Shown piece after piece: positions 18,343-27,482 of a DNA stretch of 32,000 nt; position 1 is the first letter of the stretch, and each line of letters starts with the position of its first letter. The translations under genes and the position numbers were made by a program. Origin of the DNA: Nitrosomonas europaea. GTDB taxonomy: Bacteria > Pseudomonadota > Gammaproteobacteria > Burkholderiales > Nitrosomonadaceae. Location of the stretch: contig NZ_FUWK01000011.1 in assembly GCF_900167395.1 (NCBI RefSeq), forward strand, positions 1 to 32,000, read 5' to 3'. The notes under the pieces are model-generated. The model searched no databases. It saw nothing but the letters and a program-made list of their open reading frames with translations, and was not told the origin of the DNA.

Positions 18343-19092
18343 CTACTGCTCGGGCGTCTGAGGCAAACGCCCCCAATGTTTCCAGAAATAACGGATCAGA
18401 CTCAAAGCGTGCCACTTCATGTAGCGCAGATTCCGGCGGCTCGATCGCCGTGCATCATGAATAACGCTGGCCTTCGGGCACGCCAATACTGACCGCCCCG
18501 ATTTCCACAGGCGTGCACAAATATCGACATCCTCGTAATACAGAAAGAAGCCTTCATCAAAGCCCCCGACTGCACGAAAATCCTCAGTACGAAACAACAT
18601 GAACATACCCGCCACCCAGTCTGCTGCAAATGCCTCATCACCGGCAGCAAAGAGATACCGGCCATCTCCATGCCCGAACAGTTTTGCTGCCAGAGATGTC
18701 AATACAGGAAAACAACGCACGCTGTCCTCAATCATACCGCTTGGCGTAACCACCATCGGTGCGATCACACCTGCAGAATCATATGCTCCCTCCTCGATCA
18801 GGATCGGAAAAGGATTATTAATCAAACGAATATCAGGATTCATCACACAGAACCATTCCCCTTCTGCCTGCCGAAAGGCCGCATTGTGGTTCGCGCCAAA
18901 CCCTCTGGCTGCTGTGTTTCTTAATATCCTGACCGGATAAGGATAATCACCGGGCTTAGATGAAATATCTTCAGGGATATTGAGCGTAACCAGAACTTCG
19001 GTAACCATGGACATATCCAATCTAACCAAATCCGCGAGCAATTGCTCAACCAGGGTCGACTGGCCATGACTGACGATAGAAACAGTGATCAT
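18343..19092 (-). CDS. Glycosyltransferase family 2
   Basis: The N-terminus MITVSIVSHGQ..., NTAARGFGANHN and the DxD-like YYEDVD region are typical of GT2 (rhamnosyltransferase-like) enzymes. Confidence 0.8.
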   Translation of the reverse strand: MITVSIVSHGQSTLVEQLLADLVRLDMSMVTEVLVTLNIPEDISSKPGDYPYPVRILRNTAARGFGANHNAAFRQAEGEWFCVMNPDIRLINNPFPILIEEGAYDSAGVIAPMVVTPSGMIEDSVRCFPVLTSLAAKLFGHGDGRYLFAAGDEAFAADWVAGMFMLFRTEDFRAVGGFDEGFFLYYEDVDICARLWKSGRSVLACPKASVIHDARRSSRRNLRYMKWHALSLIRYFWKHWGRLPQTPEQ

Positions 19093-19127
19093 GTAACAAT
19101 ATTCTCAAAGATACTCAATATTGCAAC

Positions 19128-19538
19128 TTACCTCACTAACCAGTTTTCTACCTGCAATTCCCCAACCCGGGAAAATTTATCCAGATTGGCAGTAATCAGC
19201 ACACATTGACTTGCCATAGCCTGGGCCGTAATCAGCATATCGTTAGGCCCGATGACTTGTCCAGATTGCTCAAGCACCCAGCGCAATTGCGCATAAGCGC
19301 GGTCCACTGGCGTATCAAGCGGCAACACCTCGATTGCCGCCAGAATGGCTTCCACCTGCCTGGTCAGCCTTAAGGAATTTCTCCTGGCAGCCCCAAACCT
19401 CAATTCTGCGGCAACGATAATCGACGTACATACCGCTGCTTCACCAACTTCCTCAATTCGTCGGGCTATAACTCCTTGTGGATAGCGAACCAGATCAGAA
19501 AGAATATTCGTATCCAGTAAATAACGCGGTGAAATCAT
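19128..19538 (-). CDS. vapC: VapC PIN-domain toxin
   Basis: 136 aa. YLLDTNILSD gives the first PIN acidic residue. 4-bp overlap with the upstream antitoxin gene. Confidence 0.85.
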   Translation of the reverse strand: MISPRYLLDTNILSDLVRYPQGVIARRIEEVGEAAVCTSIIVAAELRFGAARRNSLRLTRQVEAILAAIEVLPLDTPVDRAYAQLRWVLEQSGQVIGPNDMLITAQAMASQCVLITANLDKFSRVGELQVENWLVR

Positions 19539-19774
19539 AAATCAATGTCATCCAACGGTGCCAATCTGGTATCAATATCAGAAAAATTTTCCTCAAGTGG
19601 TGCCAACTCTGCCAACACTACCAGCAAGCCTTTTGGGGGTACCGGTTCAATAATCAAACGATTACCTTCCCGGCGCATGATTACCTCCTGCGCATTCAGC
19701 TCGAATTCGCGAGGAATACGCACAGCCTGATTCTTGCCGTTACGAAACAATCTGACATAACGTTCAGATAACAT
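19535..19774 (-). CDS. vapB: VapB antitoxin (AbrB/SpoVT-type)
   Basis: Start at MLSERYVRLFRNGKNQAVRIPREFEL (AGGAG Shine-Dalgarno 8 nt upstream). The SpoVT/AbrB-like NxQAVRIP motif is present. Confidence 0.8.
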   Translation of the reverse strand: MLSERYVRLFRNGKNQAVRIPREFELNAQEVIMRREGNRLIIEPVPPKGLLVVLAELAPLEENFSDIDTRLAPLDDIDL

Positions 19775-19940
19775 GGTATTACTCCTATTCCTAAACATAG
19801 GTCAAGCATATGTTTCTTCTAACAGATCGTCAATGTATCGACTCGCTTAGCCTGCAAATTTCACGATAATCCTTGATTCTGGTTTTTCGTGATTTTTGAC
19901 TCACTATGCTGGATTTAACTCTGACGGGTAGCGGAACGTA

Positions 19941-20360
19941 GCGATCCAGTAATAACGTTAGCAGATATGCAGAATCACCATTTCTGTCATCGTTATAACA
20001 GCACTGCTAAAGGCGCTTGAATAGCGCAGCCAGCCACAGAATGACATTTCCCGCAAGCGTTTGTCGATAAAGCCCGGTATGGTACAAATCCGCAAGCCAG
20101 TTCCATAATGAAGCATTTCGGAAGCGGGAAAATTCGTCATAGATGAACCTATTTTCCGCTGTCAGTTTCTCCGCAAGCCTGACAACGCCTCGATATTGCG
20201 TGCATTCCACTGCCGATATCTCCCGGACAGCATCAGACCAAAACGACTGAATTTGGCAATAAATCCACCATCTGCCCCGATCAGGTTGGTAGCATGCTGG
20301 CGATAGCGCAAACCGGGAGCAATAAAGCGCCGGGATTTTGCGGGAAATACCACCTATCAA
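19941..20360 (-). pseudogene. Copy 1 (longest) of a repeated gene 3' end remnant ('gene X'), frameshifted; includes about 65 bp of conserved 3' UTR
   Basis: Ends ...FIYDEFSRFRNASLWNWLADLYHTGLYRQTLAGNVILWLAALFKRL* (stop at 20007-20009). The upstream part reads better in another frame (...LIGADGGFIAKFSRFGLMLSGR), implying a frameshift near 20200. Family not recognised. Confidence 0.7.
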
Positions 20361-20465
20361 ATCATCAATGGCAAAGTGGAAAAATTATTGCAATTGCCCC
20401 TTTTGACTACCTCTGTCTTTGCAGGCAAAGCAATCCAGTCATTCCATTTCCACCCGATTTGATGA

Positions 20466-20672
20466 CAAAATGCACACATATGTAACGGAGGACTGCTGGA
20501 TGACATCATCCATCCAAATACTACGGATTACCCAAATCAACGAATATTTGTGATCCAGATTCATGATTATGTCTATCTGGTGCCTTACGTGGAAAACCAG
20601 GATGAGATTTTTCTTAAGACGATTATCCCCAGCAGAAAATTCACCAGGATATACCTCGGAGGTGAAATATGA
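20466..20672 (+). pseudogene. 5'-truncated toxin gene remnant (BrnT/DUF497-like by context)
   Basis: The frame opens after a TGA and has no in-frame start. Peptide ...DDIIHPNTTDYPNQRIFVIQIHDYVYLVPYVENQDEIFLKTIIPSRKFTRIYLGGEI*. ATGA overlap with the following RHH antitoxin gene. Confidence 0.45.
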
Positions 20673-20969
20673 ACAAAGGAAAACTATCACAGGAAGAGAA
20701 AACGCTGCTTGATGCTGTGGAGTCCGGCGAGTACGAATCGTACGCTAACCAAATCACGCAAGAAAGAACTTGAGGCTGCGGCCAACCTTACCTTCAAGAA
20801 GGATAAAAGAATAAATATTCGCATATCGAACAGGGATCTTGTCGCTATTCAGTCCAGAGCAATTGAAGAAGGCATCCCATATCAAACGCTTGTCTCCAGT
20901 ATTATTCATAAATACATATCTGGCTCACTGCAAGATCTCACAGCGCGCAAATCGGGCAAACCCGGCTGA
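20669..20969 (+). pseudogene. Frameshifted CopG/RHH (BrnA-like) antitoxin gene
   Basis: The N-terminal frame MNKGKLSQEEKTLLDAVESGEYES... stops at about 20770. The C-terminal part is in another frame: ...KKELEAAANLTFKKDKRINIRISNRDLVAIQSRAIEEGIPYQTLVSSIIHKYISG. A frameshift near 20745 is implied. Confidence 0.6.
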
Positions 20970-21149
20970 GGTACAAACCGCATCTCCTGTGGAACTGGAT
21001 TGCCTCAATTTTCACGGTCTTCGTGAATCGCAACGTGACATGGCGATCCAGTCCCTGTACCGCCTGTCTCTCTGGATTGCTGCACTTCGTACTCCAAAGA
21101 CACAGCAGATCCAACCTCCGCAGTCTTTGCGAACCCTGCAAGGGTGAAG

Positions 21150-21340
21150 TAATCCAGAGACAACACTAGCAGATATGCAAAGCTGCCGATTTTTGTCATC
21201 GTTATAATAGCACTGTTAAAGGCGCTTGAATAACGCCGCCAGCCGGTTCCACAGTAAAGCATTGCGGAAGTGGGAAAATTCGTCATAGATGAGCCAACTC
21301 TCCGGGGTTAGTTTTTCACGCAAATCTGACAATACTACCT
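21150..21340 (-). repeat. Copy 2 of the gene-X 3' end remnant (with an internal 21-codon deletion)
   Basis: Reads ...VVLSDLREKLTPESWLIYDEFSHFRNALLWNRLAALFKRL* (stop at 21215-21217). The 3' UTR matches copy 1 (tagcagatatgca...gtcatcgttataa.agcactg.taaagg). Confidence 0.75.
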
Positions 21341-21365
21341 TTTCGGTTGAAAGATCATTTTTGAT

Positions 21366-21394
21366 TTGACATGAAATCTATTGCTATCTAATAT
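21366..21394 (+). promoter_or_regulatory. Sigma70-type promoter TTGACA-17 nt-TAATAT, ending 6 nt before the ATG
   Basis: TTGACA at 21366-21371 and TAATAT at 21389-21394; ATG at 21401. No Shine-Dalgarno in between. Confidence 0.6.
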
Positions 21395-21400
21395 CGACTC

Positions 21401-21721
21401 ATGAAAACCAGCTTTAAGCGCCCATTCGCCCAGTATGTCAAGAAAGCTACCAAACCGCTGCGGCTAGCGATCGAAGATGAGGTGGAAATGATATGTGAAA
21501 CACCAGAAATTGGCGAGCTCAAGGCCGGGGATCTGGCTGATGTTCGGGTTTACAAGTTCCGGTTCAATCAGCAAGAGTATCTAATAGCTTACCGATCGCC
21601 TACCAGAAACACACCTGTTGAATTTATGATCATCGACTTCTATCAAATCGGTACGCACGAAAACTTTTACGACAAACTGAAACAGTACTTGCGACACGAT
21701 AAAAATCCGAGAGAAATATGA
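21401..21721 (+). CDS. RelE/ParE-superfamily toxin
   Basis: 106 aa. ...GELKAGDLADVRVYKFRFNQQEYLIAYRS...IIDFYQIGTHENFY fits the RelE/ParE fold pattern. ATGA overlap with the next gene. Confidence 0.7.
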   Translation: MKTSFKRPFAQYVKKATKPLRLAIEDEVEMICETPEIGELKAGDLADVRVYKFRFNQQEYLIAYRSPTRNTPVEFMIIDFYQIGTHENFYDKLKQYLRHDKNPREI

Positions 21722-22035
21722 TGAGCCATACCTTAACTGCCGAAGAGTTATACGCTGAAATAAAGAGAATGCCGATAGCTGAACGGATTCGATTCTTTTC
21801 CCTGCTGGCGGACAGCGCCTTCCGTGAGGATGATTTCACCCATGAGCAGATATTTGGTGAAACATATCAGGAACCGTTCTCGGCCCCGGAAGCAGCAGAA
21901 TATCTGGAGATATCGTTGCCCACGCTGCGCCGCTATGTGCAGTCAGGCAAATTGGTGCCCAGCTGTATCGTAGGCCGCAACCAGATGTTCTCTGCCCAAA
22001 CCTTGCGTACCTTCAAGAGAAACCGTGGCAACTGA
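21718..22035 (+). CDS. Putative antitoxin with a C-terminal excisionase/MerR-type HTH
   Basis: 105 aa. The HTH segment is APEAAEYLEISLPTLRRYVQSGKL. It lies immediately downstream of the toxin and is translationally coupled to it. Confidence 0.6.
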   Translation: MMSHTLTAEELYAEIKRMPIAERIRFFSLLADSAFREDDFTHEQIFGETYQEPFSAPEAAEYLEISLPTLRRYVQSGKLVPSCIVGRNQMFSAQTLRTFKRNRGN

Positions 22036-22038
22036 GAG

Positions 22039-23106
22039 ATGAATCACGATCACGGTTATAAACTGCTGTTTTCCCACGCTGAAATGGTGGCAGACCTGTT
22101 GCGTGGCTTTGTGAAAGAAGGCTGGGTTAATGAACTTGATTTCTCTACACTGGAAAAGATTAACGGCAGCTATATTAGCGATGATTTGAGAGAGCGCCAG
22201 GACGACATCATCTGGCGTTTGCGCCGCAAGCAAGGCAAGCAAGACGAATGGCTGTACGTTTACCTGCTGCTGGAATTCCAATCTACTGTGGACTGGTTCA
22301 TGGCGGTGCGGATCATGACTTACATCGGCCTGCTGTATCAGGATCTCATCCGTAGTGAATCCATTAAAACGGGGGAACAGCTGCCACCGGTACTGCCGAT
22401 GGTTTTGTACAACGGAGATCATCGCTGGCAAGCGCCAGTGAATATGGGTGAGCTGATCTTGCCTGCACCTGGTGGGTTGGATCGTTATCGACCACAACTC
22501 AACTACCTGCTGCTGGACGAAGGCCGCTACCATGAACACGAACTGGTAGCATTACGTAATCTGACAGCCGCGTTATTCCGACTGGAGAACAGTCGCACCC
22601 CGGAAGATGTCCAACAAGTATTGCAGGCATTAATCACTTGGTTGCATACCCCGGAACAAGACAGCCTGCGACGTGCATTTACTGTCTGGCTAAAACGGGT
22701 ATTCTTACCAGGCAGAATGCCCAAAACCAGCTTCGATGAAATTCATGATTTACAGGAGGTATACAGCATGCTTTCAGAACGTGTCAAAGATTGGACCAAA
22801 GACTGGAAACAACAGGGAATTGAGGAAGGCAAACAAATCGGTATCCAGGAAGGTAAGCGGATAGGTATCCAGGAAGGCAAACAGATAGGTATCCGTGAAG
22901 GACGGCAGGAAGGACGGCAGGAAGGACGGCAGGAAGGACGATTGGAGGGTGAGGTAGAATTTTTTTTGAGGCTGCTGGAACGAAAATTTGGTCCGGCAGA
23001 TGAAATTACCCAGACTCGTATTAAATCTGCAGATTCGCAGACTTTGTTGCGCTGGGGTGAGCGGATTCTGGTAGCACAAACTATCGAAGAAGTATTCGAA
23101 GAGTAA
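22039..23106 (+). CDS. Rpn-family recombination-promoting nuclease / putative transposase (YhgA-like PD-(D/E)XK)
   Basis: N-terminus MNHDHGYKLLFSHAEMVADLLRGF, then ...DDIIWRL...YVYLLLEFQST (D...ExQ/K nuclease core). The C-terminal EG-rich repeats are typical of Rpn/YhgA proteins. Confidence 0.8.
   Translation: MNHDHGYKLLFSHAEMVADLLRGFVKEGWVNELDFSTLEKINGSYISDDLRERQDDIIWRLRRKQGKQDEWLYVYLLLEFQSTVDWFMAVRIMTYIGLLYQDLIRSESIKTGEQLPPVLPMVLYNGDHRWQAPVNMGELILPAPGGLDRYRPQLNYLLLDEGRYHEHELVALRNLTAALFRLENSRTPEDVQQVLQALITWLHTPEQDSLRRAFTVWLKRVFLPGRMPKTSFDEIHDLQEVYSMLSERVKDWTKDWKQQGIEEGKQIGIQEGKRIGIQEGKQIGIREGRQEGRQEGRQEGRLEGEVEFFLRLLERKFGPADEITQTRIKSADSQTLLRWGERILVAQTIEEVFEE
22768..23106 (+). CDS. Candidate intragenic in-frame small protein (RpnS-like, 112 aa) inside the Rpn gene
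   Basis: Perfect AGGAGG (22754-22759) 8 nt upstream of the in-frame ATG at 22768. The product is MLSERVKDWTKDWKQQGIEEGK... to the Rpn stop codon. Confidence 0.4.
   Translation: MLSERVKDWTKDWKQQGIEEGKQIGIQEGKRIGIQEGKQIGIREGRQEGRQEGRQEGRLEGEVEFFLRLLERKFGPADEITQTRIKSADSQTLLRWGERILVAQTIEEVFEE
22816..22944 (+). repeat. In-frame tandem repeats: 24-bp units (x3-4) followed by 12-bp unit gaaggacggcag (x3 perfect plus 1 imperfect)
   Basis: Read directly. They encode GIEEGKQI GIQEGKRI GIQEGKQI GIREGRQ EGRQ EGRQ EGRL. Confidence 0.9.
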
Positions 23107-23154
23107 TGATTTCTGCATTTACGCACCCTTTCATCCCGCCATTGTGGTTGCAGG

Positions 23155-23278
23155 AGTGCAAAGTTGCCGGTTTCAGTCATCGTTACAACACACTGCTAAA
23201 AACATTTGAATAACGCCGCCAGCCACAGGGTGACATTTCCTGCAAAAGGCTGTCGATAAAGCCCTGTACGATACAAGC
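23155..23278 (-). repeat. Copy 3 of the gene-X 3' end remnant
   Basis: Reads ...GSLYRTGLYRQPFAGNVTLWLAALFKCF* (stop at 23196-23198). The 3' UTR segment gcaaagttgccggtttcagtcatcgttacaacacactgctaaaa matches copy 2. Confidence 0.75.
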
Positions 23279-23400
23279 TCCCCACTCTTTTCCTCTTTTC
23301 CTCTTTTACACAAAACACGCTTATTCCAGGCAAGCATAAAAGCGTAGGGTGACGGGATAAATCAGTGTTTCTCCAAGTTGGCGTTAATCTGTAATGTCGT

Positions 23401-23429
23401 TTGACGCTAATATCGCAACGCAATACTAT
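23401..23429 (+). promoter_or_regulatory. Sigma70-type promoter TTGACG-17 nt-TACTAT, ending 6 nt before the higB ATG
   Basis: TTGACG at 23401-23406 and TACTAT at 23424-23429; ATG at 23436. No Shine-Dalgarno in between. Confidence 0.55.
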
Positions 23430-23435
23430 ATACTC

Positions 23436-23717
23436 ATGACGATCAAGACATTTCGATGCGCGGATCCTGAAACCTTATTCAAGTTAGGGCGAGTTGCACG
23501 ATTTGTCAACATTGAGCGTCCAGCGTTACGCAAGCTCAAGCAACTTGATTTAGCACGGTGCATTGAGGATATACGTGTGCCGCCCGCGAATCGGCCGGAG
23601 ATATTGAAAGGCGACCGTGCCGGGCAGCACAGTATCCGCATCAACGACCAGTGGCGTGTGTGCTTCCGCTGGACGGGCACGGATGCAGAAGATGTTGAGA
23701 TTGTGGATTACCACTGA
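23436..23717 (+). CDS. higB: HigB-type toxin (plasmid maintenance system killer, RelE superfamily)
   Basis: MTIKTFRCADPETLFKLGRV...PPANRPEILKGDRAGQHSIRINDQWRVCFRW...VEIVDYH matches the HigB/killer family pattern. Confidence 0.85.
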   Translation: MTIKTFRCADPETLFKLGRVARFVNIERPALRKLKQLDLARCIEDIRVPPANRPEILKGDRAGQHSIRINDQWRVCFRWTGTDAEDVEIVDYH

Positions 23718-23729
23718 TGGAGATTAACC

Positions 23730-24047
23730 ATGAATAATAAATTAACGCCGGTTTCCCCCGGCGAGATGCTGGCAGAGGAATTCTTAATTCCGCTGGGTAT
23801 GAGCAATTACCGTCTGGCAAAGGAAATTGGCGTATCAGCGCAGCGCATCGGTGAAATCGTAACGGGGAAGCGCGCCATTACCGTAGATACAGATTTGCGC
23901 CTATGCCGATTTTTTGGTCTGTCAGACGGATGGTGGTTGCGCCTACAAGTGGACTACGATATCGAGATGGCGCGCGGTGCGCTGGAAGAAACATTGGCGA
24001 AGATCAGACCGTGGGCAAATACCCAAGAGCATGGGACACCGGCCTGA
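23730..24047 (+). CDS. higA: HigA antitoxin (XRE-type HTH)
   Basis: PGEMLAEEFLIPLGMSNYRLAKEIGVSAQRIGEIVTGKRAITVDTDLRLCRFFG is the classic HigA/VapI signature. Confidence 0.9.
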   Translation: MNNKLTPVSPGEMLAEEFLIPLGMSNYRLAKEIGVSAQRIGEIVTGKRAITVDTDLRLCRFFGLSDGWWLRLQVDYDIEMARGALEETLAKIRPWANTQEHGTPA

Positions 24048-24119
24048 TCATTGTTCCCAGTGGATGGTTTCAACCACCATCAAAGTAAGAATACCGGGTC
24101 CCAAGAGCATCTATGTTGG

Positions 24120-24364
24120 CGTGATTCGATACATTACCGATACATTACCAGACCCGCCATGCAGCACAACAAGATGTGCTGCAGTATATTTCCATATTTT
24201 ATAACAGTCATCGACCACATTCATACTTGGGATACAAAAGCCAGAATCAATATGAGGCAGAAATGGAAAAATTAAAAAATGTCACTCAACTGGAGTATCC
24301 GGTTTTACTTGACCAGATCATAGCAAAGTGTCCGGGAGTATTAGGCCAGAACAAGGAGCAATGA
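24120..24364 (+). pseudogene. IS3-family transposase (OrfB) C-terminal remnant
   Basis: ...YQTRHAAQQDVLQYISIFYNSHRPHSYLGYKSQNQYE matches the conserved IS3 OrfB tail (YIExFYNxxRxHSxLGYxSP). The catalytic core is absent. An 11-bp tandem duplication gatacattacc sits at 24128-24149. Confidence 0.75.
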
Positions 24365-24365
24365 T

Positions 24366-26048
24366 ATGAACATCAACGCATCAATCATTGATCAGCGTTT
24401 GGCTGGTGTTCAAGATAAAATCAAGGAACGGGCGACCGAAGAGTTTGGCATCAGCGATGGCGATCGCCTCAGGTCGCTAGCCTTTGTTTACTTGTGCGTC
24501 GAAACCATGCTTGATCTCGATGTTGATGAAGCCTTCGATTGTCTGACCGACGGAGGCGGCGACTTTGGTGTGGATGCACTGCACATTACCGAAGAAATGG
24601 ATGGCGAGTTTGGCGTTACCCTGTTTCAAGGAAAGTACAAAAAAAATCTTGAGGGAAATTCAAATTTCGAACAAAACAGCATCGAAGCGATGGTCAATGC
24701 CATTCGCCATATCTTCGATCCGTCTGCCGATCTTGGCGCTATCAATGATCGACTGCGCGTCAAAGTGGAACAGGCTCGCTCTTTGATTCGAGATGGCCTG
24801 ATTCCGCGTGTTCGTGCCATCGCTTGTAATAATGGCCTCAAGTGGAACACGGATGGCCAACAGTCGATTGACCGTGCTGTTCTTGGTGATCAAGTTACCT
24901 GGGAACATGTTAATCACGACGTATTGATCGGTATCTTGCAGAGCATCAAACCGGTCGATGAAACCTTGCGGTTGACGGGCAAAGCCATGGTTGAAGACAT
25001 GAATTACAGCCGTGTATGCGTAGGGCGGATGCCCGTGGCTGAAGTGGCTGCGCTCATGAAAAATCATGGCGAAAAGCTGCTGGAGCGCAATATTAGACGC
25101 TATCTTGGGTTGCACGGAAATCGTGTAAATGAGGGTATCCGCGCTACATTGAGTTCAAATACGCCAGAGAATTTCTATTTTTTCAACAATGGGATAACCC
25201 TTGTTTGCGACAAATTCACCTACAATGCACTTCAACAAGGTGATTTTCAAATCAAAGTCAAGAACCTGCAGATCGTCAATGGTGGCCAGAGCTGTATGAC
25301 CATCCTCAAAACAGCCGAGGAACTTGAAAAAAATGGCCAGACCTTACCAGCGCAGGCAAGCGTCTTGATCCGGCTGTACGAACTGAGCAGCGATAACGAC
25401 GATGTGGTTCTGCAAATAACTCACGCCACCAACAGTCAAAACCCGGTGGACTTGAAGGATCTGCGCGCCAACGATGCCAGGCAGCAGCAGCTCGAACAAA
25501 GCATTCAAAACCTGGGCTATAGCTACCGACGCAAGCGCATGGATGCAACCACCAAGGCCACCGACATTACCACAGGTGCCGCAGCGGAGGCTGTACTGGC
25601 CATTTGGCGTAAAGCGCCACATCAGGCGAAATTTTTGACCCGCGAGCACTTCGGCAAGCTGTACGACACCATCTTTAGCGAGTCGCTCAATGGCGCTCAG
25701 GTGGTGATTGCAGCCTTGCTTTATCGCATCGCTGAAAATCACCGACGCCGGCCGCATGGTGATGATCCATTGTTCGTCCGCTATGCATCTTGCTTTATCG
25801 CCATGCAGATGGGAAAGCGGCTGCTCAAAGCACTGGATATCAAGCTCAATGGCCTGGACCACCGCAATTTTGCCCAGGCCAGACAATGGATTGAGGAACA
25901 GGGCGAAGCCGTGTTTGTAGTGTCCCGACAAGATATCGATACCGCACTCAAGGCTCTGTATGGGAACCAGGAAATTTCCGTGCAGCAACTCTCTGCCACC
26001 TTCCGCCGTGGTGATCTGATCGGGAAACTTGATCAGGTCGAGGTGTGA
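24366..26048 (+). CDS. AIPR-family (abortive infection phage resistance) protein
   Basis: 560 aa, with an AAGGAG Shine-Dalgarno. N-terminal ...CLTDGGGDFGVDALHI and central ...NFYFFNNGITLVCDKF...LQIVNGGQS match my recollection of Pfam AIPR (PF10592) motifs. Confidence 0.75.
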   Translation: MNINASIIDQRLAGVQDKIKERATEEFGISDGDRLRSLAFVYLCVETMLDLDVDEAFDCLTDGGGDFGVDALHITEEMDGEFGVTLFQGKYKKNLEGNSNFEQNSIEAMVNAIRHIFDPSADLGAINDRLRVKVEQARSLIRDGLIPRVRAIACNNGLKWNTDGQQSIDRAVLGDQVTWEHVNHDVLIGILQSIKPVDETLRLTGKAMVEDMNYSRVCVGRMPVAEVAALMKNHGEKLLERNIRRYLGLHGNRVNEGIRATLSSNTPENFYFFNNGITLVCDKFTYNALQQGDFQIKVKNLQIVNGGQSCMTILKTAEELEKNGQTLPAQASVLIRLYELSSDNDDVVLQITHATNSQNPVDLKDLRANDARQQQLEQSIQNLGYSYRRKRMDATTKATDITTGAAAEAVLAIWRKAPHQAKFLTREHFGKLYDTIFSESLNGAQVVIAALLYRIAENHRRRPHGDDPLFVRYASCFIAMQMGKRLLKALDIKLNGLDHRNFAQARQWIEEQGEAVFVVSRQDIDTALKALYGNQEISVQQLSATFRRGDLIGKLDQVEV

Positions 26049-26211
26049 TCGATGGCCTTCAACCAAACCAGGTCAGTTACGCCGGATTGCTTTGTCAGCT
26101 ACGCTTCCTCGCAAGGAAAGAAGAGGAATTGAGCGCATTACCATGCAAAGACAAAGCGAGCAGGAGCAGCTTTTCTCAATTTTCATCGTCTTCACGAGGC
26201 CGTTAGGCCGT

Positions 26212-26372
26212 GGCGATCCAGAAAATTTGAATAAGGTAGCTTATTTGAACATCGCTGTAACAGACTGCTAAAGGCGTTTGAATAACGCCGCCAGCCACAG
26301 AGTGATATTTCCTGCAAAAGCCTGTCGATAGAGTCTTGTGCGGTACAAACCTATAAGCCAGTTCCAGATTGA
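26212..26372 (-). repeat. Copy 4 of the gene-X 3' end remnant
   Basis: Reads SIWNWLIGLYRTRLYRQAFAGNITLWLAALFKRL* (stop at 26268-26270). It begins 3 codons after the TAG stop of the 26376-27482 gene. Confidence 0.75.
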
Positions 26373-26375
26373 ACA

Positions 26376-27482
26376 CTAAATGATACCAGCGTTATCAAAA
26401 CGGCTTTTCCATGAGTTGAATTCTCTGAATTTACAAATAACTTCTGAACTTGCATGGTACTGAAGCGCCAAGGCTGCCAATTCACCAACATCCTCCACGC
26501 CACGGCTTAAATAGGTTCCATCAGTACTTTTACGTAACGCCATTTCCCCAAAATCTGTAGATAATACTGGCAACCCCAAGGCGCGATACTCATAGTATTT
26601 GATCGGGTCTACCGATTCAGTCAGCAAAATTTTCTTAAAAGGTATTAATCCAACATCGAATTCCTGCATTGCCAGCAATGCCGCCTGGTGATTGCAGGGA
26701 GGTAGAATTTCAATATTTTGTGGCAATACTGCAGGAACCGTTGAAAATACCGGACCAATCAAGCGCACTATATCCTGTGGTCGCACATTGGCTAAAACAA
26801 TCACCCATTCCCAGTCAAACCAAGCGGCAATCGTACCTACGTAACCCAGTACTTTCCGCTCATTATCGTGGCTGCATAACCTCAGAGGCGGCAAAATATC
26901 CAGATCCAATCCATTATGTACAAGTTCCACATCATTCCGGAAGATTGACCAACGGTGCTTCAATGTGGTTGAAGAAGTCAGGATCACGCTCACCTGACGA
27001 ACAAGTGCTTTTTCTCGTTGTTGCATGGCAAAACGCGATAACCCGGAGTAAAACGAGGGAAAATCATCCATCACATCATAGATCGACCGACATCCATTGA
27101 GTCGATCCATGACAGTCAACGCAAAAATAGAGGGTTTGCCTATGACCAGCAATGTTTCACCACTGGCTGCGAAAACTGACAGTTCTTGCAGCAACCGCCG
27201 CCATAAAAAAATATTGACTGTTCCTGAGCTCGGTAACGGCTCTATCGGCAAGGCAACAGGTTTGATTATGTTTAACCAGGCAGGAATGAAAACCTCATCT
27301 CGTGCTGCTTTGGCTTTACCTATAAATTGTTGAAAGTCAGAGAGCAGCGGGAAACGAGTTGGATACGGATCAACCCAAAATACAGACCCCCCCGTCCGGC
27401 CATGAAACCACTCTACAAATTTATGCGGTCGTTGCGCAAAACTTGCCCAAGGTACAGGCGACAAGTAAATCAGTTGCATCAA
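26376..27482 (-). CDS. Glycosyltransferase, GT4/TuaH-like
   Basis: The N-terminus IYLSPVPWASFAQRPHKFVEWF is the TuaH-like W...QRP motif. C-terminal GLIPFKKILLTESVDPIKYYEYRALGLPVLST matches the GT-B EX7E-type region. Confidence 0.75.
   Translation of the reverse strand: MMQLIYLSPVPWASFAQRPHKFVEWFHGRTGGSVFWVDPYPTRFPLLSDFQQFIGKAKAARDEVFIPAWLNIIKPVALPIEPLPSSGTVNIFLWRRLLQELSVFAASGETLLVIGKPSIFALTVMDRLNGCRSIYDVMDDFPSFYSGLSRFAMQQREKALVRQVSVILTSSTTLKHRWSIFRNDVELVHNGLDLDILPPLRLCSHDNERKVLGYVGTIAAWFDWEWVIVLANVRPQDIVRLIGPVFSTVPAVLPQNIEILPPCNHQAALLAMQEFDVGLIPFKKILLTESVDPIKYYEYRALGLPVLSTDFGEMALRKSTDGTYLSRGVEDVGELAALALQYHASSEVICKFREFNSWKSRFDNAGII

Follow-up and report, generated by a model that had tools for sequence, protein, structure and literature searches.

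We studied a 32,000-nucleotide (nt) stretch of the Nitrosomonas europaea genome (RefSeq assembly GCF_900167395.1, contig NZ_FUWK01000011.1, positions 1 to 32,000; hereafter the window), which carries three tightly packed forward-strand genes encoding a ParE-like toxin, a helix-turn-helix (HTH) protein and an Rpn nuclease. We conclude, with good confidence, that these genes represent two autonomous toxin-antitoxin (TA) modules, a ParE-like/HTH pair and an rpn gene, whose adjacency, and probable co-transcription, is confined to the N. europaea lineage. Both modules belong to known kinds, and it is their fusion that is specific to this lineage.

Open reading frame (ORF) calling gave products of 106, 105 and 355 amino acids (aa). 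The stop codon of the toxin gene overlaps the start of the HTH gene in the sequence ATGA (21718-21721), and the stop codon of the HTH gene (TGA, 22033-22035) is followed by GAG and then by the rpn ATG at 22039, leaving a gap of 3 nt. An earlier sequence-only reading of the window had described this packing exactly, and its assignment of the genes to the RelE/ParE, HTH and Rpn families was borne out by profile hidden Markov model (HMM) searches, which found PF15781, HTH_17 and PF04754, respectively (Table 1). The same reading had proposed that the three genes constitute a three-component TA/defence module of undescribed architecture. A census of gene neighbourhoods revealed no conserved co-occurrence of the three families in either direction, and the proposal is therefore not supported.

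Distribution of the triplet and of its two parts

The gene-neighbourhood census was anchored first on the HTH protein and then on Rpn. In the HTH-anchored census, one genome per GTDB species was scanned with alignment A1, which yielded 80 loci whose ORFs were called and searched by phmmer and profile HMMs. In the Rpn-anchored census, a metagenome scan with the Rpn alignment A2 yielded 80 loci at 48-99% identity.

The HTH protein has more than 339 close relatives (56-97% identity), mostly in Betaproteobacteria and some in Desulfobulbia and Desulfuromonadia. A ParE-like toxin gene was located 5' of the HTH gene in 71 of the 80 HTH-anchored loci, mostly with the same 4-nt overlap as in the window, and neither phmmer nor profile HMMs detected an Rpn relative within 5 kb in any of the 80. 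The gene after the pair differs by locus, with YajQ-like, YjgA-like, P-type ATPase, SRAP-like, zeta-like kinase and MNT genes found at this position (by eye). Many of the genes 3' of the pair sit on the opposite strand, and housekeeping genes are among them. A third conserved gene after the pair was looked for in these genomes and not found. At the corresponding locus of Nitrosomonas HPC101, the closest other Nitrosomonas genome, there is no Rpn, and on a Pseudomonas plasmid the ParE-like/HTH pair is present alone. By this distribution, the ParE-like/HTH pair is an autonomous and widespread toxin-first type II TA bicistron.

When the survey was anchored on Rpn, the ParE-like/HTH pair was found at two of the 80 loci (L087 and L088), both 98-99% identical to the window, and was absent from 41 other loci for which 700 bp or more of upstream sequence was available. 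N. europaea encodes an Rpn paralogue (L167; AL954747.1, ~1.418-1.431 Mb), annotated as 365 aa, which is 83% identical and differs in its EGxQ repeat pattern. This paralogue is solitary in another TA island, which contains HipBA, MazEF and HigBA; an opposite-strand gene precedes it and there is no ParE/HTH pair. The N. eutropha Rpn homologue is also solitary. The sequence-only reading was right in remarking that Rpn genes usually stand alone.

These distributions leave little room for an integrated three-component system, in which the HTH protein or the ParE-like/HTH complex would regulate or neutralise Rpn and the triplet would be selected as a unit. Outside N. europaea-type sequences there is no co-occurrence in either census direction, and the Rpn paralogue is solitary. 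Furthermore, homologues of the HTH protein in genomes without an adjacent Rpn are 56-83% identical to it, so that nothing points to its having adapted to a second partner. The tight packing, the lone promoter-like site and the lack of an internal terminator speak for such a system, which we nonetheless consider very unlikely. A literature search found no described ParE-like/HTH_17 or Rpn-linked tripartite system.

Some observations weigh against our conclusion that the two modules are autonomous. The census comprised at most 80 loci per direction, a subset of all Rpn genes. The ParE-like/HTH/Rpn order is kept in all N. europaea-type contigs seen, and the tight spacing with no internal promoter or terminator may reflect some functional coupling of the three genes. 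The locus was found with identical neighbours on the chromosome of N. europaea ATCC 19718 (AL954747.1, ~533 kb; Rpn protein match), and near-identical strains and metagenome contigs also encode the Rpn protein with identical neighbours. Because the contigs with the triplet come from near-identical strains, the shared arrangement says little about selection.

The middle protein comprises a conserved N-terminal region of ~50 residues, predicted to be helical, followed by a C-terminal HTH_17 DNA-binding domain of the excisionase/MerR type. Profile searches also returned weaker MerR matches and an excisionase-type TIGR01764 match at 3e-5. In public records the first protein is named a type II TA RelE/ParE family toxin and the second a helix-turn-helix domain-containing protein. 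The TA pair put forward in the sequence-only reading, with the toxin gene first and an HTH partner of the excisionase/MerR type, is real. Because the HTH gene is consistently paired with the toxin gene, we infer that its product is the antitoxin; it is also predicted to be an autorepressor, acting at the palindrome over the -35 element described below. A review of the RelE/ParE superfamily gives PF15781 as antitoxin-first (A/T), of unknown activity and probably an mRNase (Gerdes 2025, PMC11980606). A toxin-first PF15781 subfamily with an HTH_17 partner appears to be undescribed so far. Searches of solved structures by sequence gave none for the ParE-like toxin and only spurious bS18 matches for the HTH protein, whose AlphaFold2 (AF2) model, with a predicted local distance difference test (pLDDT) score of 58, was too low in confidence for a fold search. 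No PADLOC v2 model matched the toxin, and the HTH domain matched mad1 only generically.

The Rpn gene and its predicted internal antitoxin

The third gene is best read, by analogy and from the hallmarks of its predicted product, as a complete RpnL/RpnS module. The sequence-only reading had overlooked that Rpn proteins with an antitoxin encoded inside their own gene are already on record as TA/defence genes. The rpn genes are genes-within-genes TA systems, in which full-length RpnL is a toxic nuclease and RpnS, a small C-terminal protein translated from an internal start, neutralises RpnL; in E. coli RpnA the internal ribosome-binding site is at K240/E241 and the internal start is M244 (Zhong et al. 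2023, PMC10327210). The same study reported that RpnS is annotated as DUF4351 in some species, that its dimerisation helix carries 4-aa repeats whose number varies among strains, that plasmid-encoded Rpn protects against phage, and that rpn genes are gained and lost singly and are enriched in defence islands (PMC10327210).

The catalytic residues of the window Rpn are conserved. In alignment A2, D4, D55/D56, E79, Q81 and R91 either do not vary or are conserved to 90% or more. By profile coordinates, D4, D56, E79, Q81 and R91 are the counterparts of D11, D63, E82, Q84 and R94 of RpnA, which are needed for activity (Kingston et al. 2017, PMC5350276). The protein scored 46.4 bits against the Rpn subfamily model TIGR01784 of NCBIfam (E = 4e-12), just below the cut-off of 52.1, and profile searches also reported Yae1_N/FliH-like repeats. 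The Rpn profile had no match in the PDB by sequence. A Foldseek search of the AF2 model against the PDB found nothing at E <= 0.001, with the PD-(D/E)XK nucleases MspJI, Cap4, LmuA and Shedu appearing only at E > 0.2, and no PADLOC v2 model matched Rpn.

An internal Shine-Dalgarno (SD) sequence, AGGAGG, is located 8 nt upstream of an in-frame ATG encoding M244, a residue that is invariant in 24 homologues (58-100% identity). Of 76 distinct homologous genes, 75 have the SD core, and the internal start is ATG in 75 and TTG in one. The Glu codon four codons 5' of M244 is GAG in all 76, compared to 47% GAG gene-wide. A synonymous position is thus under constraint, which is what a ribosome-binding site would impose. 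The C-terminal region that would be translated from this start matched DUF4351 (PF14261) at 23.0 bits, under the gathering score of 25, and PF14261 is recorded on many close Rpn homologues.

The EGRQ units at 22897-22932 differ in number between strains. There are two units in P0121 (351 aa), three in the window (355 aa) and five in L087 (363 aa), the rest of the allele being 100% identical, and the L088 allele has three EGRQ units and an extra EGRL. Among homologues, the EGxQ tract after M244 may have just one unit or more than 20. In the AF2 model of Rpn (pLDDT 78), the repeats are in a long helix (residues 249-317), which is followed by three short helices forming a small bundle. The conserved internal antitoxin signature also bears on the three-component system considered above: since Rpn holds a signature of its own, the HTH protein would not be needed to neutralise it.

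The names of the family in Pfam and NCBIfam include 'putative transposase', and the distribution of Rpn is patchy, both of which would fit self-insertion of a transposase-like mobile element behind the TA pair. We regard this explanation as extremely improbable. No inverted repeats flank rpn in the window, and rpn genes in general are without terminal inverted repeats, target duplications or defined ends and have been argued to be non-transposases (Zhong et al., PMC10327210).

Promoter, junction and expression of the fused modules

The toxin gene is preceded by TTGACA (-35, 21366-21371) and TAATAT (-10, 21389-21394), which are separated by 17 nt and together match 10 of 12 consensus positions. 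The sequence-only reading had placed all three genes behind this lone consensus promoter, and a consensus scan agreed, finding no second promoter-like site on the forward strand between 21395 and 23400. The consensus match is by itself unremarkable (3 sites found compared to 2.8 expected in shuffles), and the promoter is validated by its conservation in about 50-60 diverged homologous loci. The layout tGATTTGACATgnAATCA, ~10 nt, CTAATAT, 6 nt, ATG recurs in dozens of diverged loci whose flanking DNA is otherwise unalignable. Among 60 distinct upstream regions, a -35 element with at least 5 of 6 matches and a spacer of 16-18 nt was found in 52. A strict TANNNT that ends 5-7 nt 5' of the start was found in 39; in further regions CATAAT is found one or two bases more upstream (by eye). 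An inverted repeat, GATTT (21363-21367) and AAATC (21374-21378), straddles the -35 TTGACA and is likely to be the operator to which the HTH protein binds. Since the -10 element ends 6 nt 5' of the toxin ATG and there is no SD sequence, a leaderless or near-leaderless toxin mRNA is predicted. Across Betaproteobacteria, the toxin mRNAs of the ParE-like/HTH family are probably leaderless as well.

No convincing terminator was found inside the three-gene block. Given the 3-nt spacing and the lack of a promoter-like site or terminator between the genes, the three genes probably form one transcription unit in this strain. HTH homologues are alignable up to the last few codons, and beyond these every locus diverges. 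In 21 of 48 Rpn homologues, a TANNNT ends 4-9 nt 5' of the start, compared to a background of 3.9%, and in examples inspected by eye (among L089-L169) the start codon is not preceded by an SD sequence. This suggests that the rpn transcripts of this Rpn subfamily are probably leaderless. The window copy reads GGCAACTGAGAG-ATG, has no -10-like TANNNT and has no SD sequence before the ATG at 22039.

The simplest history would be a deletion, or an illegitimate recombination, that brought rpn up against the last HTH codons. In this event rpn would have kept at most ~15 nt of its native upstream DNA, and the rearrangement would have removed the -10-like element seen in 21 of the 48 homologues. RpnL would now most likely be made in small amounts, its transcription relying on read-through from the TA promoter and its weak translation on termination-reinitiation at TGA-GAG-ATG without an SD sequence. 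RpnS would retain its strong SD sequence, so that antitoxin excess would be preserved. It is plausible that the TA promoter drives the nuclease in this one lineage. What the sequences show is the gene content, the family membership, the unconserved triplet, the conserved promoter and the signatures of an internal start and of repeats; what we infer is toxicity, neutralisation, autoregulation, co-transcription and any role in defence.

The missing -10-like element can be read in other ways. It is a further point in favour of an integrated three-component system, and, with the lack of an SD sequence before the ATG at 22039, it would also fit an rpn copy that is a silenced or decaying passenger, not meaningfully expressed, whose adjacency to the pair is without consequence. 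Other remnants are present in the island, namely the IS3 fragment and the CopG-like orphan. We consider the passenger explanation improbable, as the 355-aa ORF is intact with conserved catalytic residues and several strains are identical save for in-frame changes in repeat number. In addition, the stop-GAG-ATG junction permits translational coupling, and read-through transcription is expected since there is no terminator.

Two autonomous modules that are probably co-transcribed remain our preferred explanation. A more elaborate arrangement would be a nested operon of the form toxin-antitoxin-[toxin with internal antitoxin], formed when a deletion put a complete RpnL/RpnS gene behind the autoregulated, leaderless promoter of the pair. 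Loss of the HTH antitoxin would then both free the ParE-like toxin and de-repress transcription of the DNA-cutting RpnL. We put this forward only tentatively and think it rather unlikely. If it were true, loss of a labile HTH antitoxin through stress or phage would couple one sensor to two effectors, and the locus would be a lineage-specific example of how a composite defence operon forms.

The surrounding island and comparison with known systems

The three-gene block belongs to a small TA/defence island, which splits a polysaccharide-synthesis cluster (Table 1). N. europaea has about 48 TA loci, which are significantly clustered (Makarova et al. 2009, PMC2701414), and a TA module beside another TA module is therefore to be expected in this species. 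Each TA/defence module of the island is delimited by direct repeats, of which there are four (19944-20360, 21152-21332, 23151-23301 and 26241-26376); they are 100-230 bp long and 80-87% identical. In a metagenome variant (L006), exactly the segment between the first two repeats is missing (window 20186-21235), including the CopG-like ORF, which suggests that the repeats act as recombination points for the loss or gain of modules. The repeats also bound the three genes as one segment, which is in keeping with an integrated three-component system.

The repeats gave no Pfam or Rfam match, their ORFs matched no Pfam family, and no copy was found in 161 other loci, the N. europaea paralogue locus included. 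Rfam found nothing across 19000-26500. Integron cassettes were considered and rejected: no integrase family is present within 10 kb on either side, and the repeats are not attC-like, having a small hairpin only (no formal attC model was run).

Table 1. Features of the three-gene block and of the island around it (window coordinates)
Feature	Position	Strand	Evidence or remark
VapBC	19128-19798	-	Island member
CopG-like orphan antitoxin ORF	20709-20969		PF12441 3e-5, below cut-off
Direct repeat, upstream copy	21152-21332	+	Left boundary of the three-gene segment
Promoter/operator of the ParE-like/HTH module (predicted)	21362-21394	+	Consensus scan; layout kept in homologous loci
ParE-like toxin gene, RelE/ParE superfamily, BECR fold	21401-21721	+	PF15781 E = 6.6e-23; 80.9 bits vs cut-off 28
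Putative antitoxin/repressor, 105 aa	21718-22035	+	PF12728 (HTH_17) E = 1.1e-7, residues 55-103
rpn, full-length RpnL-type PD-(D/E)XK nuclease (predicted toxin)	22039-23106	+	PF04754 E = 6.2e-30, residues 2-205
Internal ribosome-binding site AGGAGG (22754-22759) and in-frame ATG (22768-22770, M244), predicted	22754-22770	+	Sequence conservation
Predicted RpnS-type intragenic antitoxin, 112 aa	22768-23106	+	Analogy with Zhong et al. 2023; AF2 model
In-frame repeat tract, 24-nt (EGKxIGIQ) and 12-nt (EGRQ) units	22816-22953	+	Repeat search
Direct repeat, downstream copy	23151-23301	+	Right boundary of the three-gene segment
HigBA	23394-24047		Island member, after Rpn
IS3-type transposase C-terminal remnant (short)	24176-24364		Island member
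AIPR/AbiU-like protein	24366-26048		PF10592 2e-55; PADLOC AbiU 3e-47

Other features of the island were noted. The AIPR-family gene directly 3' of the IS3-type remnant and HigBA is a further defence gene in this repeat-bounded island. Before the CopG-like ORF there is a 40-aa ORF (20550-20672) that matched no family, and the two may be a decayed TA pair. In one N. europaea strain (L003; GCA_054182965.1, 15478-16356), an insertion sequence (DDE_Tnp_1) separates the two genes bordering the island, one for a 367-aa product and the other for UDP-GlcNAc 2-epimerase, representing strain-level variation around the island.

Together, these results remove a false lead, in that the supposed three-gene system is explained as two known modules side by side in a TA-rich genome with clustered TA loci. 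Judging by the invariant GAG codon (76/76) and the polymorphism in repeat number, a distant Rpn subfamily of nitrifiers and methanotrophs seems to share the RpnL/RpnS design. The PF15781 pair belongs to a toxin-first subfamily that is widespread and uncharacterised, has an HTH_17 partner and is preceded by a conserved promoter of apparently leaderless type. The locus as a whole offers a natural case of operon fusion between TA modules, which can be used to ask how composite defence operons form.

The ParE-like/HTH pair resembles RelE/ParE type II TA systems (PF15781, PMC11980606) in its small BECR-fold toxin, overlapping bicistron, DNA-binding partner, palindromic operator-like sequence at the promoter, and occurrence on chromosomes and a plasmid. 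It differs in its toxin-first order, PF15781 being tabulated there as antitoxin-first, and in its HTH_17/MerR-type partner and apparently leaderless promoter. The toxin-first order is shared with HigBA. Three-component TA operons such as PaaR2-PaaA2-ParE2, omega-epsilon-zeta and the HigBA-SecB chaperone system have a regulator or chaperone as third gene, and the triplet is conserved. The present locus is similar to these in having three genes in what is probably one operon, including a ParE-type or other toxin. It differs in that its third gene is a self-contained toxin/antitoxin gene in its own right, the second at the locus, and in that the triplet lacks conservation. PIN-MerR TA systems are known to have truncated MerR-like HTH antitoxins, in which a small N-terminal domain binds the toxin (Makarova et al. 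2009, PMC2701414). The HTH protein is likened to these by layout rather than homology, as it has a short MerR/excisionase-type HTH and an N-terminal region of ~50 residues and is encoded beside a toxin gene; the toxin partner is ParE-like here and PIN there.

The Rpn protein shares with E. coli RpnA-E and the plasmid-encoded RpnP2 (PMC10327210, PMC5350276) the PF04754 PD-(D/E)XK N-terminus with its D/D/E/Q/R residues. Further likenesses to RpnL/RpnS are a predicted internal SD sequence and start at essentially the same position (M244 in both), a C-terminal helix with 4-aa repeats that vary within one species and a location in a TA/defence island; the tail may also be of the DUF4351 type. The window rpn, known here from sequence alone, differs in being without its own promoter, 3 nt behind another TA pair, and its repeat unit is EGxQ, partly in an 8-aa form. 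It scored ~45 bits against the NCBIfam equivalog models for RpnA and RpnC, over the first ~125 residues only, which places it in a distant subfamily found in Betaproteobacteria and methanotrophs.

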